A DNA stretch of 64,000 bases from an uncultured Nitrospiraceae bacterium. Lineage in GTDB: Bacteria > Nitrospirota > Thermodesulfovibrionia > Thermodesulfovibrionales > UBA9159. A program made the position numbers and the translations under genes. Within the stretch, counting starts at the first letter, position 1; every line of letters starts with the position of its first letter. The stretch is from the NCBI GenBank assembly GCA_964475485.1, contig CAYYWY010000007.1:15849-79848 (forward strand), written 5' to 3'. Below the pieces are notes generated by a model. The model was not told the origin of the DNA. It worked only from the letters and a program-made list of their open reading frames with translations, and did no database searches. Shown one piece after another: positions 30,943-49,891 of this stretch.

Positions 30943-30962
30943 ACAAGATCCTCCTTTTATAG

Positions 30963-31316: not shown

Positions 31317-31328
31317 GATATATATACA

Positions 31329-31416: not shown

Positions 31417-31435
31417 TGGGGAAAAATTCCCCATA
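31417..31435 (-). terminator. Hairpin just after the metF stop (weak terminator or processing site)
   Basis: Perfect 8-bp stem ATGGGGAA/TTCCCCAT with a 3-nt loop. There is no clear U-tract on the minus strand. Confidence 0.3.
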
Positions 31436-31437
31436 TC

Positions 31438-32328: not shown

Positions 32329-32331
32329 GGC

Positions 32332-32862
32332 TCACTCCCCTTCAGATTTTCTATTTATCATGACGGCACCGGAGACGGATGTCGGTTTCACGAGACTGTC
32401 CACCACAGGGCAGCGGGCGATCACCTTTTCCGCGAGTTCCCTTATCTTTTCTTCATCATCAGGCGTCTCAATAGTAAGAATATATTTTATACCCTTAAGG
32501 CCGGCTGGTATGTCGTCGATCATGAAAAGGCCCCTCAAATCGAGAGTCCCTTCGACCTCCACAGAGAGCGAATGTATCGTATAGCCCTGATGCACGGCAA
32601 ACTCGTAGAACGCTGCCTCAATGCAGGCTGCCATGGCAGAGAGCAGAAGCTCTATGGGGTTCGGCCCAAGGTTTGTGCCTCCTGCTGCCTCGCCGTAGTC
32701 GGACCGGACAAGATGCTCCCTCACCTTTGTCTCCGTACAGAGCCCTTCCACGTGGCGTGACGAGACTCTCGGCTTGTAGATGGCAGCTTCGGGCTTTCTC
32801 CTGAAAAACTCCAGCCTCCTCGACACGATCTCCTCCAGATCTTTCCCGCGTCCCTCTCTCAT
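32332..32862 (-). CDS. OsmC/Ohr-family protein
   Basis: 'GPNPIELLLSAMAACIEAAF' and 'IARCPVVDSL' (two-Cys OsmC pattern). ATG at 32862 preceded by 'gaaggagaagg'. The 341-aa version in the ORF track is rejected. Confidence 0.75.
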   Translation of the reverse strand: MREGRGKDLEEIVSRRLEFFRRKPEAAIYKPRVSSRHVEGLCTETKVREHLVRSDYGEAAGGTNLGPNPIELLLSAMAACIEAAFYEFAVHQGYTIHSLSVEVEGTLDLRGLFMIDDIPAGLKGIKYILTIETPDDEEKIRELAEKVIARCPVVDSLVKPTSVSGAVMINRKSEGE

Positions 32863-33001
32863 AGGCCTTCTCCTTCGTTTCCTGACAACCACGACCCTAT
32901 TAAACATTTTAGCGAAATTCCGGGAAAATGATATGATGAAGGTCAGCGAATGGGAGAAGATCCTATCCATTATATTATAATAATATTGTGGAGATACCGT
33001 C

Positions 33002-35433: not shown

Positions 35434-35783
35434 GTGAATTCGGCGGCGATATGGATGCGGATTGTATGAGAACTTCCTTTATTTTAAGATTGAGGAGACG
35501 ACGTGCATGAGAGATCAAAATAAAAAAGAGATAGAATGGAAGCCTCTGTGACAGCTTGAAGTAGGAACAGGAAAAGAAGAAACCGAAATTCCTCTTTTTC
35601 TCAAAATACCGCCAGAATCCGGATCCATTCGTCATGCTTCTGTGTTGAGAAACCTCATTTTTGTGTTCTATATTGAAATTAGAAAGCTTGAACGAGCGCT
35701 GAACCTTGCAGGGGTTCGGATCGGGCCGGTAAAACCGGAACGTTTTCTCTTTGTCAAACATTCTGCAGGAAGGAGGTTTGGAT

Positions 35784-36461
35784 ATGGCGACTTCTACAAA
35801 GACAATTGAGGAAATGCGGGAAGAAAAGAAGTCTCTGAGAACGTTGATAAGCGGCTCAGTTGCTGAGAGCATATTCAGCGGCGCCGCTATCGTGCTTGCG
35901 CTTATGGGTCTTTCAGGTATAATGCCTCAGACGTTGCTCCCTGTGGCTGTGATAGTAATGGGTGCGGCTTTTCTCTTTGAGGGTGGGGCTATCTCGATAA
36001 GGTTTTCGAAGCTGTTGTCTGGAGCAAGGAAAGACCCCCTTGATCAGTTTGAATTAGGTCTCGGTGTGACTTCTGAGTTCGTCGGAGGAGTTGCCGGTGT
36101 AGTTCTCGGTATCCTTGCTCTTCTTGGGATGTATCCGATGGTGATGATTCCGGCTGCTATAGTCGTATTCGGCGGGACGTTGGTAATCAGCAGCATTGTG
36201 ACGCTGCGTCTCAACACTCTTGAGCTTGAAGGATATGAAGAGACGACTCCCTTCAAGAAGATCGCCCGTGAGGCGATGATGGCGTCCGCGGGGGTAGAGA
36301 TTCTGTTTGGCCTTGGCGCCCTTGTTCTCGGTATCGTGGCGCTCGGTGAGACACCCGCTGCGGCTACCATCAGTTTTGCCGGACTTCTTGTGGTAGGCAT
36401 CTCGGGTTTTGTCACCGGAGCTTCAATAACGGCAAGGCTGTTTCCGGCGTTAACCCGATAG
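35784..36461 (+). CDS. Integral membrane protein built from three repeated two-helix units
   Basis: ATG at 35784 preceded by 'aggaaggagg'. Gly/Ala/Val-rich TM pairs recur three times. Confidence 0.6.
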   Translation: MATSTKTIEEMREEKKSLRTLISGSVAESIFSGAAIVLALMGLSGIMPQTLLPVAVIVMGAAFLFEGGAISIRFSKLLSGARKDPLDQFELGLGVTSEFVGGVAGVVLGILALLGMYPMVMIPAAIVVFGGTLVISSIVTLRLNTLELEGYEETTPFKKIAREAMMASAGVEILFGLGALVLGIVALGETPAAATISFAGLLVVGISGFVTGASITARLFPALTR

Positions 36462-36505: not shown

Positions 36506-36785
36506 TCAATATCTCGTTGCATTTTGCAATTCGGCGAAAGCTTGAATTCTGAGCAAGTCTGGTACCTTCCCGATGGCCCGCCAGTTACTCCTTTACAGTA
36601 ATTGCAATTTGCAATTGTAAAAGAAGTGTCTCCGTTCAGCCCGGAGGAAAAGCTGGATGGGCAACCCTTTGAAAACTAATGGATTTATCTTGGATGATGG
36701 TCGGTTCTCCGCTTCAGGGGTTTTGGCAAGCAAATTGCTTGTATTTGAGAAGGAGAAAGAAACTAAAGAAAAGGAGGCAACGAGT

Positions 36786-37325
36786 ATGACAGTGGCGACA
36801 GTTATAAACGGGCTCGACCCGGAAAAGCTCATGAAGGTTGTGGAGACCGTCAAACAGAACTGGGAGACGGGAAGAACGGTATGGAAGGCTTCAACCACGT
36901 GGAAGGGCGGATTTAAGGTTGAAACCTGCTCACGGGAATTTACGCTTCTTGCAGACGAGCCCGAGATGCTCTGCGGGACGAATACGGCAGCGAACCCTGT
37001 AGAAATGGTCCTGCAGGCATACGGGGCATGCCTTACAATCGGTTACGCCATGAATGCGGCAGCTAGGGGAATCAGGATAGACGACATAAAGATCGACCTG
37101 GAGGGAGAGATAGATCTCCCCGGTTTTCTCGGTCTTGAGCCGCCTGAAAAATATGGGATGGATAAACTTCCGGGGTTCAAGAGCATTACTGCAAAGGTGA
37201 AGATCAAGGCTGATGCTGACGAGAAGACCCTGATTGAACTCCATGAGCAGGTTAACAAGACGTCTCCCGTGGGCCTCACTCTCTCTCGACCTGTAAAGCT
37301 TTCGTCCAGCCTCGAGGTATGGTAG
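36786..37325 (+). CDS. OsmC-like protein (variant)
   Basis: ATG at 36786 preceded by 'aaaggagg'. 'AANPVEMVLQAYGACLTIGYA'. The position of the second OsmC Cys reads 'KTSPVGL'. Confidence 0.7.
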   Translation: MTVATVINGLDPEKLMKVVETVKQNWETGRTVWKASTTWKGGFKVETCSREFTLLADEPEMLCGTNTAANPVEMVLQAYGACLTIGYAMNAAARGIRIDDIKIDLEGEIDLPGFLGLEPPEKYGMDKLPGFKSITAKVKIKADADEKTLIELHEQVNKTSPVGLTLSRPVKLSSSLEVW

Positions 37326-37473: not shown

Positions 37474-37491
37474 CCGGCAAAATAATTGCAA
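37474..37491 (+). promoter_or_regulatory. Sigma-54-type promoter upstream of the DsrE-like gene
   Basis: CCGGCAAAATAATTGCAA has GG-N10-GC spacing and a perfect TTGCA -12 element. The -24 element is CGGCA rather than TGGCA. Confidence 0.5.
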
Positions 37492-37530
37492 CCTGTTAAG
37501 AAAGTAAATAAAAATAAAAGGGGTGAGGTA

Positions 37531-37968
37531 ATGACGACTAAGGAAAATCTCGAAAATCCCTCTTATGAATTGTTGGCGAAAGAACAAGCCGTTAACGAGA
37601 CAGAGGATATCTTCATCGTCCTTTGTGCCTCGGGGTTTGAAAACAGCGCAAGGATGCGGTCGGCCCTGATGTTTGCCACCCTGGCGGCGTCTGCAAATTT
37701 CAGGACGATCCTTTATTGTATCCAGAACGCCGTTGATGTGATGGTGAGAGGGGCTATCGAGAGAAACGAAGTTCCGCAGCCCGGAGTTCCGACACTCAGT
37801 CAGAGACTTCAGGAAGCGAGGGAGATGGGTGTGGAAATCCAGTGCTGTACGCAGACCATGGCGAATAAGGGAATCGTGGGAGAAGATCTCATAGAAGGTG
37901 TAAAGGCCGCGGGCGCTATGAGTCTTATCGATCTCAGTACTAGGGCCAGGGGGACACTCTGTTTTTGA
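37531..37968 (+). CDS. DsrE/DsrF-like family protein
   Basis: ATG at 37531 preceded by 'aaaggggtgagg'. 'IFIVLCASGFENSARMRSALMFATLAA', 'GVEIQCCTQTMANKGI'. Confidence 0.55.
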   Translation: MTTKENLENPSYELLAKEQAVNETEDIFIVLCASGFENSARMRSALMFATLAASANFRTILYCIQNAVDVMVRGAIERNEVPQPGVPTLSQRLQEAREMGVEIQCCTQTMANKGIVGEDLIEGVKAAGAMSLIDLSTRARGTLCF

Positions 37969-37998: not shown

Positions 37999-39723
37999 TC
38001 AGCCCTGGTGCGATCCCGCACCACTAAGCCGGTATTTCCGGATCTTTCTGACTATCGTGGAATGGTCCACTCCAAGCAAGCGGGCGATCTCCCGTGTAGT
38101 ACGCTTCATCTTCAGGGCTTGAGCGAGCATGGCTTTTTCCGTATTCTCTCTGGCTCGGCTGAGGGGAAGGATTCCGGGGCTGCCGTTTTCGAGCCGGCAG
38201 CCTTCGCCCTCTCCTCTGTGATGGATGCTTCTCGGCAGATGTTCCGGTCTCAGTATATCGGAGTCGCCTGTCACCACGAGGCGTTCGATAGTGTTCTGAA
38301 GCTCCCTTACGTTTCCGGGCCATGTATGCGCTTCAAGAACCGTGATAAGTTCTGATGAGAAGGTTTTTGACTGTCTGTACTTCTGGTTGTACTGCTTGAG
38401 GAAATGCCATGTCAGGGGGAAAATATCTTCTCTCCGTTCCCTCAATGGAGGGACTTCTATGGGCACCACATAGAGTCGGTAAAAGAGGTCTTCCCTGAAT
38501 CTTCCCTCCTTCACGAGATCGCGAAGGGTGCGGTTCGTTGCCGCAATAACACGGACGTCGAACTTCACCGGCTTTATTCCTCCGACCCTATACACCTCCA
38601 TGTCCTGAAGGACCTTAAGCAGTTTTACCTGGAGACTGAGGGGCATTTCACCTACCTCGTCGAGAAAAATTATCCCACCGTTTGCCAGCTCGAACAACCC
38701 AGGCTTGCCTTCTTTCCATGCCCCTGTGAAGGAGCCTTTTTCGTAGCCAAAGAGTTCGGACTCCAGAAGCTGCTCGGGGATGGCGGCGCAATTAATCGAT
38801 ATGAAAGGTCCCTGACTCCTGTTGCTCAGGCGGTGGATCAGCCGAGCAATTACCTCCTTGCCGGTGCCACTCTCACCCTGAATCAAGACGGCAGAGTCCA
38901 CCGGAGCCACTCTTACGGCAAGATCGATCGCGCGCTTCATTGCAGGGCTCTCGACAATAATATTCTCGTTTGCCAGTCCTGTTGCGAGATTGTCATCCGG
39001 CGCTGAAAGATATAGGGCTGTGAGACGCGAGACCTGTTCCTGCAGGCGCTGGAGTTCCGTGACATCACGGATGTTCACCGTTACATGATCTATCTTGCCG
39101 TCACAGAGGGCAGGGGTCCCCGTTATATAGATCTCGTTGCCGCGGTGCATCCGCCGCATGATCGTGACGCTCTTTTTTTTCTGATGCACAAGATGGAAGA
39201 CCTCATTTATCGATTTGAGGCAGACGTGAGCGCTGTCTGAGAGATCCGAGACGGGCCTGCCTTCCACCTTCTCTTTCTTCAGCCCGGATATTCTTAGAAA
39301 GCTGCTGTTCACCTTCACTATCTTTTCATGGTCGGTAAGAATGATGCCGTCATGAGAGCCTTCCATAATCGATTCCACTTGTGGGGGATGACATTCTGAG
39401 ACCTCCTGGATACAATAAAGCACACCGACAGCCCTCTTTTGCGAACGTATGAAGTTCTTCACTATGAGAAGCCTCCTTCTGTTTCGGTAGTGCATGATTG
39501 AAGGGATCCCCTCAGCCGGCATGGCGGCTGATTCTGCGTATAGACCAAGGTCGGACATGGCTTTTCCAATCAGATCGCCCGCCATCATGCCGAATATCTC
39601 TTCCGCTTTTCTATTCGCTCTGACAATGAACCCCCCTGCGTCTGTTGCGATGATCCCCAAAGGAAGCGATTTAACTATTTGATCGGCACTAAACGGAGAG
39701 CTAATCCGGACAGCCTTCTTCAT
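37999..39723 (-). CDS. Sigma-54-dependent transcriptional activator with N-terminal PAS domains
   Basis: PAS-like 'LPLGIIATDAGGFIVRANRKAEEIFG', AAA+ 'QGESGTGKE', 'GSFTGA' loop, and HTH 'REIARLLGVDHSTIVRKIRKY'. Confidence 0.9.
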   Translation of the reverse strand: MKKAVRISSPFSADQIVKSLPLGIIATDAGGFIVRANRKAEEIFGMMAGDLIGKAMSDLGLYAESAAMPAEGIPSIMHYRNRRRLLIVKNFIRSQKRAVGVLYCIQEVSECHPPQVESIMEGSHDGIILTDHEKIVKVNSSFLRISGLKKEKVEGRPVSDLSDSAHVCLKSINEVFHLVHQKKKSVTIMRRMHRGNEIYITGTPALCDGKIDHVTVNIRDVTELQRLQEQVSRLTALYLSAPDDNLATGLANENIIVESPAMKRAIDLAVRVAPVDSAVLIQGESGTGKEVIARLIHRLSNRSQGPFISINCAAIPEQLLESELFGYEKGSFTGAWKEGKPGLFELANGGIIFLDEVGEMPLSLQVKLLKVLQDMEVYRVGGIKPVKFDVRVIAATNRTLRDLVKEGRFREDLFYRLYVVPIEVPPLRERREDIFPLTWHFLKQYNQKYRQSKTFSSELITVLEAHTWPGNVRELQNTIERLVVTGDSDILRPEHLPRSIHHRGEGEGCRLENGSPGILPLSRARENTEKAMLAQALKMKRTTREIARLLGVDHSTIVRKIRKYRLSGAGSHQG

Positions 39724-39849: not shown

Positions 39850-39867
39850 TTGGCATATAAGATGCTA
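39850..39867 (+). promoter_or_regulatory. Sigma-54 (-24/-12) promoter upstream of the ABC transporter operon
   Basis: TTGGCATATAAGATGCT has GG (39852-53), 10 nt, then GC (39864-65). It sits about 60 nt upstream of the ATG at 39925 and is divergent from the PAS activator gene. Confidence 0.6.
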
Positions 39868-39924
39868 GCAGGGGAAAGAAGTAGTTACTAAAAGGGAAAG
39901 AGCATCCAGAAAAGGAGGAGGTAA

Positions 39925-41124
39925 ATGAAAAGGCGGGAGGAAACGGACGAATTGGTCGGGGAGTCCGAAAAAGGAAGAATGGACCGTAGGACTTTTATGA
40001 GAAGGGCCGTTGCCATGGGTCTGACCATGTCTGGCGCAGGCGCCTTTTTGTCTGCCGGCGGAAAGGTAGCAGGTGAGGCATTTGCGCAGACCACGCTGGC
40101 AGGCAAACCGGTGAATATAGGAGTCGGTTATTTCCCGAGCTGGGTCGGAGGATGGTCAGGCGCCATAATAAAGCATAAGGAGCTCTGGAGGAAATATCTT
40201 CCTGCGGGAAGCAAGATAGATTGGGATGTGCATGTGGTCGGGGCACCAGTTGCGAATAACCTGCTTGCCGGTAAACTGCAGATCGGGTACCTGGGGGACA
40301 CACCCGGTTTTGTGGCTACGACAAAGAGAAACATAGCAGACTTGCGGATCGTCTCGATAAATATATTCTCGAACACTGGACAGATATGCGCCGACATGTT
40401 GCTCAGGAGTGACGCCCCGCACTTTAAGAGCGCGGATGAGGCGATCAGGTGGTTGAATGGGAAGAAGATCGGTGTTTCCGGAAAGGGTTCCTGCGGTGAC
40501 CGGTTTGTTTCAGGACTTGTGAAGAAATACAATATCAAGGCCGAAGTCCAGTATCTTGATCCTACAATAATAAAAACAGTCCTTCAATCCAAAAAGATCG
40601 ATGCTGCACAGAGCTTCCAGCCGCATGTGGCGCAAATCTCGGATGGCGGACACGGGAAGGTGGCGTTCACCGGTGCCGAATGGGGATGGCAGGAAGGGAG
40701 CGTTATTCTTATGCGGAAGGACTTCATCGACAGCCACAGGGAAATTGCAAAGGGGTGGCTGAAGGCGGATATCGAGGCGCTTCAGTTCATGCTGAAGAAT
40801 CCATATGAGACGGTGAAACTCATTTCTCAGGATTTGCCTGGTTTTTCTACGAAGGACCTCTGGACGGCACTTTACGGGCGATACCCTGAAAACATCAAGG
40901 CATCGGAAATCAATGCAGTGGCTTTGGTGCCGTTTGACGGACAGATTATGGAATACATAAACGAGGCTTTTCAGTTCCTGCATTCCATCGGCGCTGTTAC
41001 GGTCGATAAGCCCATGCAGGGCGCTATATTCCCCGAACTACTGGATCAGGCGGCAAAGGAGATGGGTGTCAAGCTGCCGTTAGGAGAGTTCAAGGGGCGC
41101 CCGGCCGGCGAATTCAAAGGGTGA
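39925..41124 (+). CDS. ABC substrate-binding protein (NitT/TauT/SsuA-like) with a twin-arginine signal
   Basis: Strong SD 'aaaggaggagg' before the ATG at 39925; an alternative ATG at 39979 is possible. Tat motif 'DRRTFMRRAVAMGL', AxA-like 'AFA' cleavage site, and 'NIGVGYFPSW'. Confidence 0.75.
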   Translation: MKRREETDELVGESEKGRMDRRTFMRRAVAMGLTMSGAGAFLSAGGKVAGEAFAQTTLAGKPVNIGVGYFPSWVGGWSGAIIKHKELWRKYLPAGSKIDWDVHVVGAPVANNLLAGKLQIGYLGDTPGFVATTKRNIADLRIVSINIFSNTGQICADMLLRSDAPHFKSADEAIRWLNGKKIGVSGKGSCGDRFVSGLVKKYNIKAEVQYLDPTIIKTVLQSKKIDAAQSFQPHVAQISDGGHGKVAFTGAEWGWQEGSVILMRKDFIDSHREIAKGWLKADIEALQFMLKNPYETVKLISQDLPGFSTKDLWTALYGRYPENIKASEINAVALVPFDGQIMEYINEAFQFLHSIGAVTVDKPMQGAIFPELLDQAAKEMGVKLPLGEFKGRPAGEFKG

Positions 41125-41140
41125 CGGGGACGCCGAAAAC

Positions 41141-41578
41141 ATGTCCGCAACGAGGGACGTAAGACGGAAAAAACGGAAGGAAGTAAAGATCGTCTGGGAT
41201 GTGACCATCGGGAATGAGGCGCTCTTTGAGGACAGGCTCTGTCTCATTCAGCACACGGCGGAAGTGATCCGTAAGAACGGTATGGCTCCGAATTTCGTGA
41301 TCGTTATCCACGGCCCTGCAACTAAATTCGTTGCCAATTCCATCAGCAAGACCAAGTTCGGCAACGAATGTCTCGGGAGGCTCCCAGCTATTCAGAAGAT
41401 AATCGTGGAGATGAACGAAGACGGGATGCGCTTTGTCCAGTGCCAGGTCCCGATGATCAGGAAAGATGTCTCCAAAGACAACATTCTTCCATTTGTCAGT
41501 GTCTCTGAAACCGTCTTTTACGACCTTGCTATCCTCCAGATGAAAGGATATGCATATATCCCCATCTATGAAATGTGA
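41141..41578 (+). CDS. DsrE-related small protein (COG1416-like)
   Basis: 'KIVWDVT', 'FVIVIHGPATKF', and C-terminus 'YDLAILQMKGYAYIPIY', typical of the DsrE-related family. Confidence 0.55.
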   Translation: MSATRDVRRKKRKEVKIVWDVTIGNEALFEDRLCLIQHTAEVIRKNGMAPNFVIVIHGPATKFVANSISKTKFGNECLGRLPAIQKIIVEMNEDGMRFVQCQVPMIRKDVSKDNILPFVSVSETVFYDLAILQMKGYAYIPIYEM

Positions 41579-41641
41579 GCTGCAGGGAGTATGGGGAAAT
41601 GATGTGGTATTATCTTCTTAGGGCATCAAGGAGGCTTTTCG

Positions 41642-42454
41642 GTGATTAGTCGCGTATGGGCGAGACTTTCAGACCCGAAGCTGCTCAGGGCCGCTGCAGG
41701 GATTTTCCTTTTTGTAGGTCTCTGGTATCTGTTCACTGCGGTACTGAACCTCCCTCGGTTCAAGCTGATCCCCAACCCTATTGCGGTACTTAAGGAATGG
41801 TTAAGCTTCACACCGATATCGGGACGTTCCATCTTCACAAAAATCTATTATCTCGATATCGCTTATAGTGTGGGAAGGACGCTGGCCGCCTTTACCATCG
41901 CGACGCTGCTAGGAGTGACACTTGGTCTCCTTATGGGGTGGAGCAGGACTTTTTACGATTTCACTTTCCCTGTGGTCGAGATACTGAGGCCCATGCCGCC
42001 CTTGAGCTGGATACCACTTGCGGTTCTGATCCTCCCCGGCGTGGAGATGGCGGTTGTCTATGTCACATTTATCGCAGCTTTTTTTGCAACGGTCCTCAAC
42101 ACGTTGCTGGGGGTCTTTTCCATTGACAAGAATTACTTTCTGGCTGCGCGATGCCTGGGATCGAAGCAGAAGGACATCTTCCTGAATGTGATAGTCCCCG
42201 GCGCACTGCCTTTCATCTTCACCGGATTACAGATAGGCATGGGTATATCGTGGATGTCCCTTGTCGCAGGGGAGATTATCGCTGGCAAGCAGGGGCTCGG
42301 CTATGCCATATATGAAGGATACTTTCTCTACCAGTTTGAACATGTCATAAGCTATATGTTCACCCTCGGGATTCTTGGTTATATGAGCAGCGCGGGCATC
42401 AGGGCGTTGGGAAGAAGGCTGATGGCCTGGGAAGCGAGAAGGAGGGGTGCATAG
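41642..42454 (+). CDS. ABC permease 1, NitT/TauT type
   Basis: 'EILRPMPPLSWIPLAVL' and six predicted TM segments. Confidence 0.85.
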   Translation: MISRVWARLSDPKLLRAAAGIFLFVGLWYLFTAVLNLPRFKLIPNPIAVLKEWLSFTPISGRSIFTKIYYLDIAYSVGRTLAAFTIATLLGVTLGLLMGWSRTFYDFTFPVVEILRPMPPLSWIPLAVLILPGVEMAVVYVTFIAAFFATVLNTLLGVFSIDKNYFLAARCLGSKQKDIFLNVIVPGALPFIFTGLQIGMGISWMSLVAGEIIAGKQGLGYAIYEGYFLYQFEHVISYMFTLGILGYMSSAGIRALGRRLMAWEARRRGA

Positions 42455-43293
42455 TGACAGCGAATGGACTGAATCACCACGGAGAGATCTTGATAAGGGA
42501 TGTCACTAAGATATACGACCCGGAAGGGGTCCATGTGGTAGCCATGAAGGACTGCTCCTTTGATATAGCCGCAGGAGAATTCGCTGTCATCGTGGGACCG
42601 TCGGGATGTGGAAAGACCACTCTCCTGAACGCGATCGCCGGGTTCGATACAATCACTTCAGGGGAGATATATCTCGACGGCGAGCTTATTTCTTCCCGCG
42701 ATACGCAGATAAGTCCCGACGTAGAGCGGATGGTTGTCTTCCAGAACGGAGCGCTTTTCCCATGGAAAACGGTCATGGAAAATATCGTTTACGGCCCTGT
42801 CGTCCAGAAGAGGATGAAAAGGAGAGAGGCGATAGAAACCGCCAGAGGGATGCTGAAACAGGTCGGGCTGAACGGCATCGAGGACAAATACCCCGAAGAG
42901 CTTTCTTCAGGTGTCCAGAGGAGGGTCGAGATACTGAGGGCCTTGATAAACAAGCCGAAAGTCGTGATGCTCGACGAACCCTTCAGGGGTCTTGATGCCG
43001 TGGCAAAGACCGTCATGCACGAGTTTCTCATGGAGATATTCTGCGATTCTCCCCGTACAATGTTCTTCATTACCCATGACCTTGATGAAGCCATTTTTCT
43101 CGGCGGCAAGGTGATCATCATGACGACCCGCCCAGCACAGGTCAAGAAGATAGTTTATGTCAATTTGCCGTGGCCGCGCGAACACCACATGATGGGTACT
43201 GAGACCTATCTCGAACTCAAGAGGGAGGTGCTCGAGGCCGTTCACGAGGAGGCCAGGAAGGCCTTTGAGGCAGGAGAAAGGGAGATGGCCTGA
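42454..43293 (+). CDS. ABC ATP-binding protein 1
   Basis: 'GPSGCGKTTLLNAIAGFD', 'LSSGVQRRVEILRAL', 'VMLDEPF'. Confidence 0.85.
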   Translation: MTANGLNHHGEILIRDVTKIYDPEGVHVVAMKDCSFDIAAGEFAVIVGPSGCGKTTLLNAIAGFDTITSGEIYLDGELISSRDTQISPDVERMVVFQNGALFPWKTVMENIVYGPVVQKRMKRREAIETARGMLKQVGLNGIEDKYPEELSSGVQRRVEILRALINKPKVVMLDEPFRGLDAVAKTVMHEFLMEIFCDSPRTMFFITHDLDEAIFLGGKVIIMTTRPAQVKKIVYVNLPWPREHHMMGTETYLELKREVLEAVHEEARKAFEAGEREMA

Positions 43294-43296
43294 GCC

Positions 43297-44097
43297 ATGG
43301 AGATGACTCAGGAACTAAAAGTGAAGAGGGAATTCAAGAAAGTCTTTAATGTAAGGCTCCTGAGAGGGTTACTTTCCATCGTCACGTTTGCCGTCCTGTG
43401 GCAGCTCGTTGTGTTCTTGAAAGTCCCCTATCTCGAAAATCTGCCCTACCCGAAGGATGTCGCGATCGACGCCATTGATGCGGCCGGTTCCAGGACCTAT
43501 TGGTTCGGCTGGGGGATCAGCCTCTCACGCATATTTGTAGGATTCGTCGTTGCTCAGCTCGTCGGTATCCCTCTCGGTCTTGCGATGGGCATCAGCAGGG
43601 CATTCAAGGACTTCACCTTCCCGGTGTTCGAGATGATGAGACCCGTTCCCCCCATAGCATGGATTCCCCTGGCCATACTCTTTTGGCCGACAAGGGAACT
43701 GTCGATATATTTTCTCGTATTTATTGGAGCCTTCTTCATCATCGTGATAAACGTCATACAGGGGGTCTCAAATATCTCCGTCTCTGTCAAATGGGCGGCC
43801 TCTTCCCTCGGTGCGGGGCCGAAGGACATATTCTGGAGAATCCTGGTGCCCGGCTCCCTTCCCTCCATCATTACGGGGATGACCGTTGGAATGGGCGTTA
43901 CATGGAATGTTCTCATCGCCGCAGAGATGATCGCGGGGCAGGGGGGGCTCGGCAGGATGACCTGGGAGGCGTATACGAACAACAACATCCCTTTCATTGT
44001 TGTCGGGATGGTCAGCATAGGCGTGGCGGGCTATCTTTGCAGCATGCTCGTGAGATGGCTGGGCGAAAAGGCCATGCCATGGAAGAGAAGGTTTTAG
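43297..44097 (+). CDS. ABC permease 2, NitT/TauT type
   Basis: 'EMMRPVPPIAWIPLAILFW'. Paralogous to permease 1. Confidence 0.85.
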   Translation: MEMTQELKVKREFKKVFNVRLLRGLLSIVTFAVLWQLVVFLKVPYLENLPYPKDVAIDAIDAAGSRTYWFGWGISLSRIFVGFVVAQLVGIPLGLAMGISRAFKDFTFPVFEMMRPVPPIAWIPLAILFWPTRELSIYFLVFIGAFFIIVINVIQGVSNISVSVKWAASSLGAGPKDIFWRILVPGSLPSIITGMTVGMGVTWNVLIAAEMIAGQGGLGRMTWEAYTNNNIPFIVVGMVSIGVAGYLCSMLVRWLGEKAMPWKRRF

Positions 44098-44109
44098 AGG
44101 AGGCTGACT

Positions 44110-44991
44110 GTGCCCGGAAAAAATGGCGAGGGCGTATTGACTAGAGGTGGTTTCGGTGAAGTGCGGATAGAAGATGTCACGAAGGTTTACGAAAAGGGTG
44201 AAGAGAGCCAGAAAGTCCTAGACGGGTGCAGCTTCCGCATAGAGCGGGGAAAGCTGACGGTTCTCATGGGACCGTCCGGGTGTGGAAAGACTGTGCTCAT
44301 AAACCTCATTGCCGGATACGAAAAGCCCTCGGCAGGCCGCATATCCATCGATGGAAGCCCTGTGGCAGGGCCGGGTTCCGACCGCCTGGTCGTGTTCCAG
44401 GAGACGGCCCTCTTTCCCTGGATGACCGTGTACTCCAATGTGACGTTCGGATGTCAGGTGCAGGGACTCGGCAAGGGGGAGACAAGGGACAGGGCGGAGC
44501 TGATCCTGAAGAAAGTGGGGCTCTATGAATTTAGGGATAAATACCCGACTCAACTCTCGGGAGGCATGCAGAGAAGGGCTGAGCTCGCCCGTGCCATGAT
44601 CAACGACCCGAAGATCATGATGCTCGATGAGCCTTTCAGGGGGCTGGATGCCATGACCCGCCAGCTGATGCAGGAATTTTACGTCGGACTTTTCGAGGAA
44701 GTGGGCAGGACGAACCTCTTTGTAACCCATGAGATCGATGAGGCGGTATTTCTTGCCGACAGGGTGGTCATTATGACTTTCCAGCCAGGCACGGTAAAGG
44801 CGGAAATAGAGGTCGACCTTCCGAGGCCCAGGGAGTTCCATATGCTTGCATCACCGCGCTTTATGGAGATACGCGAACAGATCATCGATCTCCTGTATGA
44901 GGAGGCAGCGAAAGCCTTCGCGGCGGGTAGCAAAACCGCGTATGACCTGGTAGGAGCTATTGTTGCGCGCAAGGGCTTCTGTGAGAAGTGA
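44110..44991 (+). CDS. ABC ATP-binding protein 2
   Basis: 'GPSGCGKTVLINLIAGYEKPSAG', 'LSGGMQRRAELARAM', 'MMLDEPF'. Confidence 0.85.
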   Translation: MPGKNGEGVLTRGGFGEVRIEDVTKVYEKGEESQKVLDGCSFRIERGKLTVLMGPSGCGKTVLINLIAGYEKPSAGRISIDGSPVAGPGSDRLVVFQETALFPWMTVYSNVTFGCQVQGLGKGETRDRAELILKKVGLYEFRDKYPTQLSGGMQRRAELARAMINDPKIMMLDEPFRGLDAMTRQLMQEFYVGLFEEVGRTNLFVTHEIDEAVFLADRVVIMTFQPGTVKAEIEVDLPRPREFHMLASPRFMEIREQIIDLLYEEAAKAFAAGSKTAYDLVGAIVARKGFCEK

Positions 44992-45006
44992 ACATGGCGG
45001 GCCGGG

Positions 45007-45450
45007 ATGGTTCCAGAAAAAGTCCTTATCGGAATCCTAATATTTATCGCTTCCCTGCTCCAGGGGGTATTCGATTTCACCTTTATGCTCATCGCGTTGC
45101 CACTGCTTTCACTCTTTCTGAGTGTCAAGGTTGCGGTTCCCCTGCTGTCGTTCTTCCTGGCCCTGCTGTCGGGAATTCTGGCCTTCCGGTTCAGGAGCAA
45201 GTTCGATCTGAAGGACGTCATGCCGCTCCTGTCATGTGCGCTCATCGGGATACCTCTCGGCATCCTGTTTCTCATTGAGTTCAGCGACAAGTTCATAAAG
45301 ACGACCCTGGGGCTGCCTCTCATCGGGTATTCGGTTTATTCGCTCTTTATGAGAAAGATACCTTCCCGGCTGCCCAGGTGGACAGGATGTATTGCCGGAT
45401 TTTCGGCAGGAGCGCGGGCGGTGCCTTCAATATTACCGGCCCCCCAGGTA
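45007..45450 (+). pseudogene. TauE/SafE (DUF81) sulfite-exporter-family remnant, frameshifted and 3'-truncated
   Basis: The N-terminal TM pattern 'LLQGVFDFTFMLIALPLLSLFLSVKVAVPLL' is in one frame. The family motif 'GGAFNITGPP' appears only in a second frame (ORF 45378..45566). Homology stops about 17 nt before the convergent FtsX gene's stop at 45467. Confidence 0.6.
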
Positions 45451-45466
45451 ATTCAGCCGGCTCAGG

Positions 45467-46630
45467 TCACACCCGCAAGGAGTCGACGATATTCATCCGT
45501 GCGGCCCTGGCAGCAGGGAGTACGCCTCCCACAAAACCCATAACGAGAGAGAACGTCAGGGACTGATAGATGATCTTTCCTGTGAGGGTGAAGGAGAATG
45601 CCAGTTCCGAAAATGTCTGCCAGTTAATGGTCGAGATGGTGAGGAGCTGCAAAAAGGAAGCGAAAAAAAGGCCTGCACATCCTCCTGTGAGACCGAGAAG
45701 CATCGATTCGGCAAGAAAGGCGGCGAGGATGCTTCTCCTCTGATAGCCGAGGGCGCGGAGCGTCCCTATCTCAGCGGTCCTGTTCGCCACTGCTGCGTAC
45801 ATCGTGATCATCGCGCCTATCATCGCACCGAGGGAGAAGATGATGGTCAGGGATATCCCGAGGATCCTCAGGAACTTCGCCATCACCTCGGACTGGTCGG
45901 CATAGTACTGCGTTTCGCGCTTTGCCTCAAGGGTGAGACGGGGATCACTCTCTATGCGCTCCTTGAAGCTACGGAACTCCGCAGGGTCGCGGAGCTTGAA
46001 CAGTACGGATGAGTACACTGGTCTCCTGAATGCCTGCATCAACTGGTCGGCATCGCCCCATATCTCGGAGCTGTAGCCGGTCTTCCCAGCCTCGAATATG
46101 CCCACTACTGTCCAGTCACGCATTCCGAAGCGGAGCTTCTCTCCGAGACCCCCTCCCTTGAATCTCCTCGCGATGCTTTCTCCGGCAATGATCTCAGACG
46201 AACCCGGTCTCGGCAGACGTCCCTCCTTGATCCTGGCCTGGGGCCTCAGGGCGAGTGAAAATTCGCCGATCCCCCTGATTGTCACATTGGAAGGCTTGTC
46301 TGTGCCTCTCTTCGGAAGGTTTATCAATACCACCAGCTCTTTCGCAAGGAAAGGTCTACCGCCTTCGCCTCCGGCCACTTCAGGCTGCGTCCCCACTATA
46401 GACGCCGAGGTCCGGTCCACCCCGCTCTGCATTTCAGAGGCGGAGGCGCGTCTTATCACGATAACGTTATCGTACGAGCCCGTTTCGATCAGGGTCTGGC
46501 GCAGCCCTTCGGCCAGCATCAGCACCGAGGCAAACACGAAGACGACAAGGGCCATTCCTGAGGCGGTGAGCACAGTGGTCAGCCGCCTTGTCCAGAGGTT
46601 TCTGAAGCTGTAGGAAATGGGGATCCCCAT
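45467..46630 (-). CDS. FtsX-family ABC permease (MacB/LolE-like), copy B
   Basis: 'FRNLWTRRLTTVLTASGMALVV' and a C-terminal FtsX four-helix region. 387 aa. Confidence 0.85.
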   Translation of the reverse strand: MGIPISYSFRNLWTRRLTTVLTASGMALVVFVFASVLMLAEGLRQTLIETGSYDNVIVIRRASASEMQSGVDRTSASIVGTQPEVAGGEGGRPFLAKELVVLINLPKRGTDKPSNVTIRGIGEFSLALRPQARIKEGRLPRPGSSEIIAGESIARRFKGGGLGEKLRFGMRDWTVVGIFEAGKTGYSSEIWGDADQLMQAFRRPVYSSVLFKLRDPAEFRSFKERIESDPRLTLEAKRETQYYADQSEVMAKFLRILGISLTIIFSLGAMIGAMITMYAAVANRTAEIGTLRALGYQRRSILAAFLAESMLLGLTGGCAGLFFASFLQLLTISTINWQTFSELAFSFTLTGKIIYQSLTFSLVMGFVGGVLPAARAARMNIVDSLRV

Positions 46631-46667
46631 ATCGTTTATCGCTCTCGGAGAATGCGCCGCATCGAGT

Positions 46668-46748
46668 CGTCATTGCGAACGCAGTGAAGTAATCTTAAGG
46701 CCGGATTGCCGCATCGTCCCGATCGAGCCGGGACTCCTCGCAATGACG
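46668..46748. repeat. Palindromic intergenic element (REP/MITE-like)
   Basis: 11-bp terminal inverted repeat CGTCATTGCGA (46668-46678) / TCGCAATGACG (46738-46748). An internal 9-mer, GCCGCATCG, occurs at 46656 and 46708. Confidence 0.5.
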
Positions 46749-46754
46749 GCATAG

Positions 46755-47912
46755 TCATCCTATCCTCCTAAGCCCGTCAGCGACCCTGAGTTTTATTGCC
46801 CGCCAGGTCGGAAACAGGGCAGCGACGAATCCCACGACGACCGAGGCAACGATATCCATGTAGATGGACTCAGGTTCAACGATAAAGACAGGGAAATACT
46901 GGCTCAATGAATCGCCGAACATCTTTGCCGCAGGAAAGGTAAGCGCAATCCCAAGCGCGCATCCAAGGGATGAAATGAACAACGACTCCCCGAATATGAG
47001 TTTTGCGATATGCCAGCCGCCGAACCCGAGGGTCTTCATGATGGCATATTCCCCCATACGCTCCCTCGCGGTCATGGCCATGGTGTTTGCCATCACCGCC
47101 ATGATGATGACGATTACGACGAACGATACGATCTGAATGACGATGACGATGGCCTCTGTCATCGCGATGAAACCGAGCTGGAAGGCCTTCTCTGTTTCCG
47201 TTATCGTCTCGGCAAGGGAGTTCTTGAACATCTTGTCGATGGCCACCGCCACTTCGGCTGCCAGCTCGGGTTTCGTTACCCCCACGACATACCAGCCTAC
47301 CTGATCGGCCCGGTGCGGGGCCGTCTTCTTCAGGGATTCGTTGAGGTAATCCCAATGGAAAAAGAACTGAGTCTCGTCGGTGCCCTCCTGCGCTCCTCGA
47401 TAGATGCCACGAATGTTGAATTCCCAGTTGCCCGGGAATATAGTCCCCTTGAGCGTGATCGTGTCGCCTATCTTCCAGCCGAACCTTTCAGCGGTTTTTA
47501 TGCCGACAACGGCTCCTTTCCTGTCCCTGAAAAAGGAGTTCTTCTGTACCTCCGGCAACAGGAATTCGGGGAAAAGGTCAAGGGCGCTTCTTGCTTCCGT
47601 CGCAAAACTGGGAAAGAAATTCTTTTCGGAGATGTACACGCCCCCGAACCAGTATGAGTAACCCACTTCCTTCACTCCCGGTACCTGGCGGATCTTGTCC
47701 TTGTATGAAAGGGGAAGAAAAAAGACGAGGGAAATGGAATTCCTCGTGATCAACCTGGTCGCCGAGGACGCCTCCACGCCGGCATACCACGCGCTCACCA
47801 CAGTGCGCAGGAGGCCGAAGGCAAGGATCGCTATGGTGATACCCAGGACAGTGAGACCGGTGCGGAGTTTATGTCGAAACGCGTTTCTGAAAAGCAGTTT
47901 CAGTATGTGCAT
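46755..47912 (-). CDS. FtsX-family ABC permease (MacB/LolC-like), copy A
   Basis: '[24 protein letters not shown]' plus a periplasmic domain and FtsX C-terminus. 385 aa. Confidence 0.85.
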   Translation of the reverse strand: MHILKLLFRNAFRHKLRTGLTVLGITIAILAFGLLRTVVSAWYAGVEASSATRLITRNSISLVFFLPLSYKDKIRQVPGVKEVGYSYWFGGVYISEKNFFPSFATEARSALDLFPEFLLPEVQKNSFFRDRKGAVVGIKTAERFGWKIGDTITLKGTIFPGNWEFNIRGIYRGAQEGTDETQFFFHWDYLNESLKKTAPHRADQVGWYVVGVTKPELAAEVAVAIDKMFKNSLAETITETEKAFQLGFIAMTEAIVIVIQIVSFVVIVIIMAVMANTMAMTARERMGEYAIMKTLGFGGWHIAKLIFGESLFISSLGCALGIALTFPAAKMFGDSLSQYFPVFIVEPESIYMDIVASVVVGFVAALFPTWRAIKLRVADGLRRIG

Positions 47913-48621
47913 TCAGGATGCCTTTTTCGAGATGTCTGATGGCATGGGCCTTCTCCGCTGCGCGGGGGTCGTGCGTCACCATGATAATGGTCTTTCCGAT
48001 CTCATGAACAAGACGTTCCATGAGGTCCAGTATCTCCACGGCAGAGACCCTGTCCAAGTCACCCGTCGGCTCATCAGCCACGAGGATGGTCGGATCGGTA
48101 ACAACGGCGCGGGCAATGGCGACGCGCTGCTGTTGTCCGCCGGAAAGCTGGGAAGGGTAGTGGTCCATGCGGTCGGTAAGATTGACCATCCCAAGGGTGA
48201 TTTCCACATGCTCCCTGCGCTCCTTCTTCGAAAGATTGGTGAGCAATAATGGAAGTTCCACATTTTCGAAAGCGGTGAGCACAGGGATCAGGTTGTAGAA
48301 CTGGAAGATAAAACCGACGTTGAAGGCCCGCCAGTGAGCAAGCTCGGTCTCGGTGAGGGAGGTGATATCGAGGCCTCCGACGAGAATCGTGCCGCTGTCG
48401 GGCCTGTCTATCCCGGCGATGAGATTTAGCAGTGTTGTCTTGCCGGACCCCGATGGTCCCATCAGGGCGAGGAATTCACCTTGCGCAATGTCGAGATTTA
48501 TGTCCTGGAGCACAGGCAGTGTCTGGTTGCCGCGCCGGTAGGATTTGTTGAGACCCCTGATTGTTACAATAGGCTCTTTGATTTCCATGGTTTTGGATAC
48601 CTTCGCCCTGTCTTCATTCAT
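47869..48621 (-). CDS. ABC ATP-binding protein (MacB/LolD-type)
   Basis: '[23 protein letters not shown]', '[15 protein letters not shown]', '[11 protein letters not shown]'. An alternative start at 48588 is possible. Confidence 0.85.
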
Positions 48622-48643
48622 CCGGGCAGGAGCGATGGGTTGA

Positions 48644-49891
48644 TTACTTTTCAGCGACCTTCACCCGGATACCGCTCTTCAGTTTCTCGAGAGGCTTCAA
48701 TACTACTCTGTCACCGGTCTTAACACCTTCGAGCGCCTCCGTCATGTCCCCGATACGTTCCCCAAGAGTCACCGGTGTTTCGACAGCCCTGTCTCCCCTG
48801 ACGAGAAAAACCACCGTCTTCCCGTTGCGCGTCGTTATCGCCGCAGGATTAACGGCCGTGCGGGGTCTCTTTTCCGCCTCTCTTACCTCTCTTTCGAGAA
48901 AGGCGACCTTCGCGCTCATTTCAGGCAGTATCCGGCCGTCTCTGTCCAAAAAACGCACTTTCACCAATACCGTGGCCTTGGTACGATCTGCGGTGGGTAC
49001 GATCATGTGCACCACGCCCCGGAAGCGCGTCTCCGGAAGAGCATCGAGTTGTATCTCGCAGGGCTGCCCCACTTTCACCTGTTCGAGATTCGATTCGGAG
49101 ACATCCACCTCCACCTGAAGGGAACCCATGTCTGCAATGTTGACGACAGCCGCTTTTGCGTTCGCCGCAGCGCCCAATGGGGTGACGATGTCGCCTATGT
49201 CCGCGTTCTTGGTCAGCACAACGGCGTCAAAGGGGGCCCTGATGAATGTGTACTCCACAGCGACGTCGGCGTTCTTCAGGGCGGCAGCGCTTGCCTTCAC
49301 TGCAGCCTCGGCGCCTGCAACCGCGGCGGCCGCCTTTCTGTATCGTGCCTCAGATGCATCGAATTCCGCCTTCGAGATATATCCCTTCCCTACCAGATCC
49401 ACGTTCCGTTGAAAGAGCAGCATGGCGTCGTCCAGCTCCGCCCTGGCCTGCTCTAGACCTTGTTGCGCCACGCTCAGGTTCGCGGCAGCCTGCTCCCTGA
49501 CAGCGATCACATCGTCACCTTCAAGACGTGCGATCACCTCCCCCCTTTTTACACTGTTGCCCTCCTCCACGAAAAGGGAGACGAGACGGCTCGTGATCTT
49601 TGACGACACGGCTGCCTTTCTCTGGGCGACCACATAGCCGCTGGCGTTGAGGAGGGTGAATGTCTGCGACGCATAGATCTGTGTGACGCTGGTTGTCTCA
49701 ACGGTAACTGCAGGGGCAAGGATGCCGGTAAAATAGAGAAATCCAAGGACAACAACAAGCGCAGAGGCAGCAGCCCAGCGGAGGAGGCGCTTCTGCCTCC
49801 TCGGCCGGACCATTGCCTCTGCCTTGTCGATCCTCAGCTTTGAAATGTCTTCATCAGGCATACAGATGCTCCTTGGAAAAATATCTGTCAT
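48644..49891 (-). CDS. Efflux periplasmic adaptor (HlyD/MacA family)
   Basis: N-terminal TM anchor, long Ala-rich coiled-coil, and beta-barrel C-terminus. 415 aa. Confidence 0.8.
   Translation of the reverse strand: MTDIFPRSICMPDEDISKLRIDKAEAMVRPRRQKRLLRWAAASALVVVLGFLYFTGILAPAVTVETTSVTQIYASQTFTLLNASGYVVAQRKAAVSSKITSRLVSLFVEEGNSVKRGEVIARLEGDDVIAVREQAAANLSVAQQGLEQARAELDDAMLLFQRNVDLVGKGYISKAEFDASEARYRKAAAAVAGAEAAVKASAAALKNADVAVEYTFIRAPFDAVVLTKNADIGDIVTPLGAAANAKAAVVNIADMGSLQVEVDVSESNLEQVKVGQPCEIQLDALPETRFRGVVHMIVPTADRTKATVLVKVRFLDRDGRILPEMSAKVAFLEREVREAEKRPRTAVNPAAITTRNGKTVVFLVRGDRAVETPVTLGERIGDMTEALEGVKTGDRVVLKPLEKLKSGIRVKVAEK

Follow-up and report, generated by a model that had tools for sequence, protein, structure and literature searches.

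We analysed a window of 64,000 nucleotides from an uncultured Nitrospiraceae bacterium (NCBI GenBank assembly GCA_964475485.1, contig CAYYWY010000007.1, positions 15,849 to 79,848 of the forward strand), in which positions 39925-44991 carry the genes of an ABC importer. The gene for a substrate-binding protein (SBP) of 399 aa (39925-41124; NMT1_2/SsuA_fam) is followed by a gene for a cytoplasmic protein of 145 aa with a predicted DsrE fold (41141-41578; codon of Cys101 at 41441-41443), and then by permease 1 (41642-42454; Pfam BPD_transp_1, E=2.4e-19), which forms an orthologous lineage of its own across loci, ATPase 1 (42454-43293; Pfam ABC_tran, E=1.4e-32; signature LSSGVQRR), permease 2 (43297-44097; BPD_transp_1, E=3e-24) and ATPase 2 (44110-44991; ABC_tran, E=6.5e-34; canonical signature LSGGMQRR). 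A remnant of a TauE-like gene (45007-45543, + strand; Pfam TauE) comes next. An earlier sequence-only reading of this DNA had proposed the order SBP, DsrE-like, permease, ATPase, permease, ATPase; the listing of open reading frames (ORFs) and scans with Pfam and NCBIfam located each element it had named, in that order. All transporter genes lie on the + strand and the gaps from gene to gene are only -1 to 63 nt, so the six genes form one operon.

Both permeases belong to BPD_transp_1 and both ATPases to ABC_tran, with Walker A, Walker B, signature and H-loop; in ATPase 1 only the signature motif is altered, the other three motifs being intact. Together with an NMT1/SsuA-type class II SBP, this makes the system an importer of the NitT/TauT type. 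Among NCBIfam models, the permeases scored best with SaoP, NtrB and TauC, and the ATPases with SaoA, NtrCD and TauB. Close homologues are annotated as Thermodesulfovibrionales or Nitrospirota metagenome-assembled genomes. A scan of a genome collection yielded 78 loci, and clustering of neighbouring genes was done over 79 loci. The subfamily occurs in Nitrospirota, Desulfobacterota, Bacillota, Alpha-, Beta- and Gammaproteobacteria and sponge symbionts, and since the same gene order is found in more than 70 loci, the layout is not due to chance. The importer encoded at the locus, under sigma-54 control, is a member of a separate NitT/TauT (SsuABC/TauABC-like) subfamily that is conserved but has yet to be characterised.

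The two permease and two ATPase genes had been taken in the sequence-only reading to encode a heterodimeric 2+2 transporter. Identity is 37.7% between the window permeases and 45.3% between the window ATPases. Paralogues were assigned in the other loci by tblastn with the window proteins, which was unambiguous (minimum bit-score ratio 1.16-1.25). Both ATPase paralogues were present in 69 of 71 loci, and the dominant orders were SBP-P1-A1-P2-A2 and P1-A1-P2-A2-SBP (P, permease; A, ATPase). Because both permease types were found in 67 of 72 loci across many phyla, the 2+2 layout is ancestral to the subfamily; the proposal was therefore correct and does not describe a local oddity. The two ATPases differ in their signatures: LSSG[M/V]QRR replaces LSGG in 61 of 71 ATPase-1 orthologues, whereas LSGGM[Q/K]RR is kept in 68 of 71 ATPase-2 orthologues. 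As judged from these motifs, the split suggests functionally asymmetric ATP sites in a type I importer. The window also provides an internal contrast, a conventional 1+1+1 NitT/TauT importer at 21211-23793.

A sigma-54 (-24/-12) promoter-like element, TGGCAT-N5-ATGCT, was read from the sequence at 39851-39866 (+ strand). It ends 59 nt 5' of the ATG of the SBP gene and begins 75 nt 5' of it, counting the leading T. The element also precedes the operon in four relatives (L004, L006, L009 and L034) and the leading porin gene in four others (L003, L007, L008 and L027). A strict search pattern, which demanded a pyrimidine 5' of TGG, missed the closest relatives, and a corrected pattern caught the element. 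The element is strongly enriched: at an expectation of 0.011 per 450 nt, the strict pattern picked it up in 16 of 79 loci, and the corrected one in most relatives among the Nitrospirota. Genes for sigma-54 activators flank the transporter in 28 loci; the one in the window (37999-39723, - strand; Pfam Sigma54_activat, E=5e-71; two PAS domains and HTH_50) is divergent from the operon and presumably regulates it. A scan for terminators and sigma-70 promoters gave no meaningful signal within the operon. Further upstream, 33934-35433 encodes a GAF/sigma-54 activator and 35751-36461 a 236-aa ORF without family match. In L085 the equivalent GAF/sigma-54 activator is located 3' of TauE, and therefore a second regulator for the DsrE/OsmC genes may exist.

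The SBP starts with an unusual export signal. Residues 20-27 read D-R-R-T-F-M-R-R (RRTFMRR being 21-27) and are followed by AVAMGLTMSGAGAFL, by AFA (52-54) and by Q55. The h-region is weakly hydrophobic and rich in Gly, Ser and Thr, K47 lies in the c-region, and cleavage is predicted between AFA and Q55. Residues 1-54 have the composition of a Tat-type signal with a conserved acidic n-region helix, R21-R22 and the AFA site, and the SBP thus appears to carry a Tat-type export signal. The RR motif noticed in the sequence-only reading is translated from both candidate starts; ATG 39925 is preceded by a strong Shine-Dalgarno sequence, AGGAGGAGG (39913-39921). Among 84 homologues from several phyla the twin arginines were 96-100% conserved and Phe at +3 was 99% conserved, giving the consensus DRRTF[IM]K. 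The 18 residues 5' of the RR pair are conserved too, which is unusual among signal peptides: relative to RR, Asp was found at -16 in 96%, Glu at -15 in 86%, Leu at -14 in 93%, Ile at -10 in 90% and Gly at -4 in 89%. The structure model predicts a helix over residues 6-15. Conservation of the n-region and the predicted helix both argue that the upstream ATG 39925, which adds 18 residues, is the real start.

Conservation of the twin arginines holds in the clade of approximately 50-100% identity but not in a sister clade (approximately 40% identity, motif ITYGYHPYWTGGW), whose members have Sec signals, a few being lipoproteins. The other NMT1-type SBP in the window (22831-23793) also has a plain Sec signal. 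The remark in the sequence-only reading that Tat export is uncommon among ABC binding proteins is right, but there are earlier reports of such proteins, for instance in Brucella and Achromobacter, so that a Tat signal by itself is not novel. The notable part is the conservation, across phyla, of what looks like an entire signal of approximately 54 residues. Tat signals of cofactor enzymes can be bound by chaperones, and by analogy the conserved n-region may bind a partner protein; its conservation hints at a dedicated chaperone or loading step. No candidate chaperone gene was conserved across the examined loci. It is a possibility that the SBP is exported in the folded state with a cofactor or metal bound, as had been suggested; the cross-phylum conservation of the signal and a C-x-[D/N]-R motif in the SBP would be compatible with it.

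The AlphaFold2 model of the SBP (pLDDT 88.8) had TauA and SsuA as top Foldseek matches (E 1e-16 to 1e-18), and NrtA and CmpA were also retrieved. The Pfam match is NMT1_2 (E=1.2e-6), and a profile reaches TauA at E=9e-13. The pocket was mapped by reading this profile alignment, which is a sequence alignment only, against the published contacts of TauA, in which the backbone amides of Gly61, Gly79 and Thr132 hold the sulfonate, the other contacts being the Gln30 side chain, the hinge residue Glu106, and Asp205 (PMC6906117). Gly61, Gly79 and Thr132 would correspond to G106, G124 and S/T189 (S189 in the window), all of them conserved. Gln30 would correspond to F70, which is Phe or His in the family; the position of the hinge contact Glu106 would adjoin C155; the residue directly after the Thr132 equivalent, for which no TauA contact is listed, would be C190; and the Asp205 position appears to be variable. 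C155 (codon 40387-40389) and C190 (codon 40492-40494) are present in 81 of 81 SBP homologues from the fetched loci. In the wider family (at least 128 representatives at 50% identity, E<=1e-30), 40 of the 52 representatives with full coverage contain both, and 7 of the remaining 12 contain neither. This pattern of retention and loss fits a functional pair. The motif C-x-[D/N]-R shows little or no variation. According to the alignment, C155 and C190 would line the ligand cleft, with F70, W73 and W77 forming an aromatic lid.

A paralogous SBP with approximately 53-55% identity has a third cysteine in the first pocket loop, where TFCYTTQW is found instead of GVGYFPSW. Such three-cysteine paralogues are the SBP encoded at 9741-10937 of L005 and the proteins P0074, P0077, P0079, P0080, P0085 and P0088; in L005 it is a second SBP inside the same operon.

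The pocket bears directly on the idea that the locus encodes a conventional alkanesulfonate- or taurine-type importer, serving assimilation or sulfonate respiration, with TauE exporting sulfite, the DsrE-like and OsmC proteins as bystanders and the cysteines as structural residues. TauA and SsuA are indeed the nearest matches in sequence and structure, the backbone-amide sulfonate site seems conserved, and TauE/SafE, which is annotated as a sulfite/sulfonate exporter, is linked to the transporter in 24 loci. Compared with TauABC and SsuABC (TauA 6ssy; SsuA 2x26 and 3ksx), the SBP fold, the anion site built from Gly and Ser/Thr backbone amides, and the permease and ATPase families are the same. 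However, those systems are homodimeric, whereas two distinct permeases and two distinct ATPases are found here, and the SBP differs by its apparently invariant pocket cysteines, by its Tat-type signal with conserved n-region and by the probable loss of the TauA selectivity residues Gln30 (replaced by Phe/His), Glu106 and Asp205. The NCBIfam scores were far under the cutoffs for the window SBP (SsuA_fam 97 against 163.5; TauA 47.9 against 490), and likewise for the permeases (TauC 135 and 132 against 342) and the ATPases (TauB 191 and 230 against 357). In the 79 clustered loci and the further loci read, linked desulfonation genes of the SsuD, TauD, Xsc or glycyl-radical type were not encountered, and the recurring partners are sulfur-carrier and methyltransferase genes. 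We consider a conventional sulfonate importer unlikely. The sequence-only reading had inferred a specialised sulfonate or organosulfur importer; membership of the NitT/TauT family and the sulfur-related neighbours (DsrE-like, TusA, OsmC, TauE and URO-D) agree with this, but the scores, the pocket and the missing desulfonating enzyme speak against a plain sulfonate as substrate.

The first of these neighbours is the 145-aa protein itself. Its ORF had no match in Pfam or NCBIfam, but PF02635 is carried by 15 of 55 homologues and a profile of the family reaches ST0148 at E=0.0046. With the AlphaFold model (pLDDT 92.8), Foldseek retrieved ST0148, MTH1491, Swol_2425, SSO1126, YchN and DsrEFH, the target-normalised TM-score being 0.86-0.88 against ST0148/MTH1491. 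As the model matches DsrE-family structures and homologues carry PF02635, the earlier description of the inserted gene as DsrE-related is correct. The lone cysteine, C101, occurs in 25 of 25 sequences (A3) and varies hardly at all in A2; in the alignment it falls on a Cys of ST0148 and MTH1491. The predicted fold is shared with DsrEFH, TusBCD, DsrE3, ST0148 and MTH1491, the single Cys with the last two. The family is a subfamily apart and differs from DsrE/TusD-type carriers by motifs of its own (WDxTxGD, HGPATKF and GYAYIP), by a window copy that is below Pfam detection, and by the existence of periplasmic paralogues.

The window copy lacks a signal peptide and is therefore the cytoplasmic form. 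Homologous genes, in this form or in a form with signal peptide, flank the transporter in 21 loci; paralogues with a signal peptide, and thus periplasmic, were found in L005, L009, L034, L063 and L085. Tandem pairs, the first gene with and the second without a signal peptide, lie between the SBP and permease 1 genes in L005 (6932-7929), L009 (7002-8051), L034 (11166-12160) and L085 (11225-12256). In L063, L072 and L074 the periplasmic DsrE-like gene lies beside genes for DsbD and a TlpA-like redoxin. The expected linkage of DsrE-like genes to orthologous transporters was confirmed in Nitrospirota and many Proteobacteria; it does not extend to the Desulfobacterota and Bacillota loci examined, which had no DsrE-like gene and contain corrinoid methyltransferase genes instead. 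The window encodes a second DsrE/DrsE_2-type protein (37486-37968, + strand; 160 aa; Pfam DsrE E=1.1e-12, DrsE_2 E=1.7e-7) with several Cys (IQCCTQTM), and this type recurs in 7 loci. The two DsrE-type proteins of the window were considered as paralogues, but hhalign gave a probability of only 0.28 against the 145-aa family, and the second type is thus a separate subfamily.

Antisense ORF artefacts in high-GC loci (clusters 3, 11 and 35) were set aside in the neighbour counts. Besides the sigma-54 activator, TauE and DsrE-like genes, the recurring neighbours were URO-D (16 loci), a B12-binding protein (12), DUF1638 (10), OsmC (10, and 6 in a short form), RACo/RamA (8), the second DsrE type (7), MetY (5), acyl-CoA ligase (5) and a GcvH-like protein (4-8). 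In Nitrospirota the typical order is [porin]-SBP-[periplasmic DsrE]-DsrE-P-A-P-A-TauE, with OsmC, TusA, DsrE and the regulator on the 5' side and URO-D, MtrH and corrinoid genes 3-7 kb away. A porin of the OprO/P type, which is a phosphate-selective porin family, is the first gene of the operon in L003 (1283-2584), L007, L008 and L027. Because this porin type is anion-selective, it points to a hydrophilic anionic solute in these four relatives. In Desulfobacterota the typical order is SBP-P-A-P-A-DUF1638-TauE (a few loci are without TauE), and URO-D, Pterin_bind, B12-binding and often RACo genes adjoin the operon. In a Bacillota locus (L017) the same methyltransferase genes and DUF1638 lie upstream and TauE is missing.

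These contexts raise the alternative that the transporter is the uptake arm of a corrinoid-dependent demethylation of an S-methylated organosulfur anion such as 3-methylmercaptopropionate or a thioether resembling methyl-coenzyme M. In this scheme URO-D would demethylate the substrate, MtrH/Pterin_bind would pass the methyl group to tetrahydrofolate, TauE would export the thiol, and the DsrE-like protein would handle only the released sulfur. The methyltransferase genes of the Desulfobacterota, Bacillota and Nitrospirota loci fit this scheme. DUF1638 has been genetically tied to B12-dependent methyl transfer (PMC5764234), and a preprint counts methylthiol and methylmercaptopropionate (MMPA):cob(I)alamin methyltransferases among the URO-D enzymes (bioRxiv 10.1101/548461). 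MTHFR-like genes occur 3' of the transporter in L068 and L071, and acyl-CoA ligase, acyl-CoA dehydrogenase or MetY genes as neighbours in L056, L059 (ligase only), L075 and L083. However, most proteobacterial loci are without corrinoid genes, the URO-D/MtrH operon in the window has a 1+1+1 importer of its own, and the periplasmic DsrE-like proteins and the DsbD and TlpA genes would be left unexplained. As a complete account we find demethylation rather unlikely; it overlaps with the model that we prefer, set out below, and does not exclude it.

The proteobacterial loci, which include those of sulfur oxidisers, have other companions: DsrE-like genes in either form, OsmC, GcvH-like, Lpd-like reductase, TlpA/DsbD and TusA genes (TusA in L082 and L085), and also tetrahydromethanopterin, MTHFR-like and MetY genes. 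SBP56/methanethiol-oxidase-like genes were found in L083 and L067, MauG-like genes in L083, L063 and L072, and SCO1/SenC in L083. Methanethiol oxidase is a periplasmic enzyme (PMC5739008) that was reported to liberate sulfane sulfur (PMC10936201). In L083 (11182-15766), L063 (11148-14560) and L082 (11175-12005) all from sulfur-oxidising Proteobacteria, genes for a short OsmC and a GcvH-like lipoyl protein come after the SBP gene in varying order; L083 and L063 add an Lpd-like flavoprotein disulfide reductase, and L083 also an SBP56/methanethiol-oxidase-like gene and a redoxin, with SCO1/MauG upstream. This gene set could be a peroxidase module of OsmC with lipoyl dependence, or else a sulfur-oxidation module of the LbpA type.

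The explanation that we prefer, tentatively and at somewhat less than an even chance, is that the importer takes up a small anionic reduced or S-methylated sulfur compound, which is handed to DsrE-type carriers. Such an anion is favoured over a plain sulfonate because several features agree with each other: the retained anion site, the cysteines and aromatic lid of the putative pocket, the porin for anions and, as neighbours, sulfur carriers on either side of the membrane, thiol reductants of the periplasm, corrinoid methyltransferases of the thiol type and methanethiol oxidase. In this model the SBP would be exported folded via Tat, its two pocket cysteines perhaps shielded or preloaded. In the periplasm it would capture an anion bearing a thiol, persulfide or S-methyl group, the anionic head resting on the amides of G106, G124 and S189 and the sulfur-bearing end being gripped by C155 and C190 beneath the lid of F70, W73 and W77. 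The SBP would then dock on the asymmetric permease pair, and the asymmetric ATPase pair, with its one LSSG site, would power import. In the cytoplasm the DsrE-like protein would take over the sulfur moiety (in relatives TusA, the second DsrE type and OsmC-like proteins occur as well), neighbouring URO-D/corrinoid/MtrH methyltransferases would strip any methyl group, and TauE, which is broken in the window, would export an anionic by-product. Candidate substrates include the sulfur of persulfides or polysulfides, methylmercaptopropionate or mercaptopropionate, thioether sulfonates of the coenzyme-M type and anions derived from methanethiol. Further candidate ideas for substrate or mechanism are thiocyanate, dimethylsulfoniopropionate and other onium compounds, methanesulfonate as a methyl donor to corrinoids, and a Zn-thiolate capture site. 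Within the model, the sulfane-sulfur and S-methyl-thioether versions are roughly equally likely.

A stronger form of the sulfane-sulfur version holds that the whole subfamily is a dedicated route by which extracytoplasmic sulfane (zero-valent, persulfidic) sulfur enters the cytoplasm. A periplasmic DsrE-like carrier, reduced by DsbD/TlpA, would load the SBP cysteines or pass on a small persulfide anion, the heterodimeric ABC unit would translocate it, and a cytoplasmic DsrE-like/TusA relay would receive the sulfur for oxidation, reduction or disproportionation. Such a route would explain the linkage to methanethiol oxidase and possibly to thiocyanate dehydrogenase. As a claim for the subfamily as a whole we judge it quite unlikely; if it is true, it addresses the long-standing question of how sulfur crosses the membrane in oxidisers and disproportionators.

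Several points weigh against uptake of a reduced or S-methylated sulfur anion. The loci of Desulfobacterota and Bacillota lack DsrE-like genes and most proteobacterial ones lack corrinoid genes, and because the gene contexts are so heterogeneous, either one substrate must fit all of them or there is more than one substrate. An ordinary sulfonate would suit the backbone-amide anion site and TauE just as well. The geometry of the cysteines comes from the alignment to TauA, and C155 and C190 could form a plain structural disulfide; the SBPs of the Sec-exported clade would meet DsbA. The OsmC, GcvH-like and Lpd-like neighbours could belong to a lipoyl-dependent peroxidase module unrelated to transport. 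The window TauE is a pseudogene, the window has no periplasmic DsrE-like gene, and its nearest corrinoid operon owns a conventional importer. Finally, neither the TAT_signal model of Pfam at E<=1 nor a Tat model of NCBIfam at E<=0.01 (PF10518/TIGR01409) matched the SBP, although such short models are easily lost to the HMMER filters, and when three N-terminal peptides were searched with Pfam for TAT_signal, a spurious YqhI match was all that emerged; as the Pfam model is silent, the assignment to Tat rests on motif and conservation. That the cysteines are structural and the neighbours incidental is left as a residual case.

Another transporter of the same broad family has been linked to a DsrE-like protein. 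The SAO system combines a NitT/TauT-like importer with the DsrE-like SaoD, and an organometallic substrate was proposed for it (Haft & Gwadz, bioRxiv 10.1101/2022.07.06.499078). Its SBP pockets are lined by conserved Cys, as may be the case here. Unlike the window system, SAO relies on one permease, which is homodimeric and carries Sec or Cys at its gate, and includes a MerB-like SaoL as well as SaoE, SaoC and SaoT. SaoP, SaoA and SaoX were among the top NCBIfam matches, and membership of the SAO system was considered; it was rejected because the scores were far below the cutoffs (SaoP 145 and 140 against 295, SaoA 198 and 222 against 360, SaoX 33 against 300) and partner genes were missing. 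The window genes scanned included neither a MerB-like gene nor another gene of the Sao set (SaoB, SaoC, SaoE, SaoT), and the DsrE-like protein had no NCBIfam match. Berben et al. (2017) described uncharacterised two-permease/two-ATPase NitT/TauT genes beside thiocyanate dehydrogenase in Thioalkalivibrio and thiocyanate hydrolase in Thiobacillus thioparus, with DsrE-like and TusA genes and sigma-54-type regulators nearby, and speculated on copper acquisition (PMC5328954). By their description these clusters match the window type and may belong to the same subfamily; no SBP is annotated in the Thioalkalivibrio clusters. A locus of T. thioparus DSM 505 (L063) does belong to the subfamily, but it is not the scn locus.

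Both precedents could be read in favour of a thiophilic element as substrate (selenite, methylselenides or a soft metal or metalloid), or of a Cys2-Asp metal cofactor with which the SBP is loaded in the cytoplasm. The two cysteines and Asp/Asn192 would be the ligands, DsrE, TusA and OsmC would serve as chaperones for selenium or the metal, and loading of a cofactor would explain the use of Tat. The near-invariance of the Cys pair and of C-x-[D/N]-R and the conservation of the putative Tat signal are consistent with this, OsmC weakly matches a model named 'OsmC-related (seleno)protein', and Methanococcus starved of selenium switches on URO-D/corrinoid (Sdm) genes, TusA/TusD and transporters (PMC11097638). 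However, the Sao scores are far under cutoff, neither a MerB-like protein nor a selenoprotein was seen among the scanned neighbours, large operons under sigma-54 control that contain MtrH and MTHFR suggest catabolism more than the scavenging of a trace element, and the OprO/P-type anion porin speaks against a metal cation. We regard selenium or metal uptake as improbable, and uptake of a sulfur-bearing anion remains the explanation that we prefer.

The SBPs of the nitrate and bicarbonate systems Nrt and Cmp are lipoproteins. NrtABCD and CmpABCD belong to the same ABC family, also have two different ATPase genes, and NrtA and CmpA are structural neighbours of the window SBP. They differ in having one permease gene and in the fused SBP-like regulatory domain of NrtC/CmpC (according to PDB titles), and they lack the cysteine pair and a linkage to DsrE. 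The kind of transporter is known, but the combination found here (ancestral 2+2 layout within NitT/TauT, invariant Cys pair, signal conserved across phyla, differentiated LSSG ATPase, and DsrE-like partners paired across periplasm and cytoplasm) is undescribed in the literature searched and covered by no NCBIfam model.

If uptake of a reduced or S-methylated sulfur anion is correct, the subfamily marks a step in the uptake of reactive or methylated sulfur compounds that has so far gone unnoticed, at the point where the sulfur chemistry of the periplasm meets the DsrE/TusA relays of the cytoplasm and the transfer of methyl groups by corrinoids. It would then supply concrete candidates for the entry of sulfane sulfur or small thiols in sulfur oxidation, disproportionation and anaerobic degradation of methylated sulfur compounds. 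The architecture is of interest as well, being that of a type I importer with two differentiated ATPases, one of them with a non-canonical signature. If the substrate is an ordinary sulfonate, the value is confined to a better annotation of a widespread transporter clade.

Two URO-D/corrinoid modules are present within the window. The first, at 21211-33357 (- strand), is a complete corrinoid methyltransferase operon that includes the 1+1+1 NitT/TauT importer mentioned above (ATPase 21211-22020, permease 22022-22789, SBP with Sec signal 22831-23793). The importer genes are accompanied by RACo (23805-25778), Fer4 (25876-26649), a B12-binding protein (26538-27341), URO-D (27230-28267), MtrH (28301-29332), a second URO-D (29905-30942), MTHFR (31438-32328) and a protein of 341 aa that ends in an OsmC domain (32332-33357). 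The second (806-11412, + strand) is a methyltransferase-type cluster with URO-D, CobW, a CbbQ-like AAA protein, DUF2284, another URO-D, a corrinoid protein and RACo, in which a 921-aa protein (3699-6464) had no Pfam match. It resembles the 'mlp' clusters of Kountz & Balskus, who proposed a role in methyl-sulfur or methyl-selenide metabolism; their paper contains no link to a transporter, TauE or DsrE. Between the two modules, 12368-18693 encodes a BtuF-like binding protein, a FecCD permease, a TonB-dependent receptor and TonB, probably for the uptake of corrinoids or iron complexes.

Upstream of the second DsrE-type gene lies the gene for the OsmC-like protein (36657-37325, + strand; Pfam OsmC, E=7.5e-21). 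Its true start is probably an internal Met (ATG near 36786), where the orthologues start. The second catalytic cysteine is missing, the protein having TSPVG where relatives have HCPV, and the score with the NCBIfam model OsmC_like_Se (57.5 bits) was below the cutoff of 95.

The TauE-family remnant noticed in the sequence-only reading proved to be a genuine pseudogene, with a frameshift and a truncation relative to the intact orthologues of 241-243 aa in related loci. In tblastn with these orthologues, residues 2-139 matched in frame at 45004-45414 and, after a frameshift near 45400-45414, residues 136-150 at 45402-45446, where the homology ends; the C-terminal approximately 90 residues are lost. 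The Pfam TauE match covers profile positions 3-141 of 237, so the ORF is not a full-length TSUP protein. A convergent cluster for a MacB/FtsX-type exporter (45467-49891; FtsX, FtsX, ABC ATPase and HlyD-like) begins where the remnant stops, its nearest gene, of FtsX/MacB type, ending at 45467, and the junction at 45400-45470 is either a real rearrangement or a join made in the assembly of the metagenome-assembled genome.

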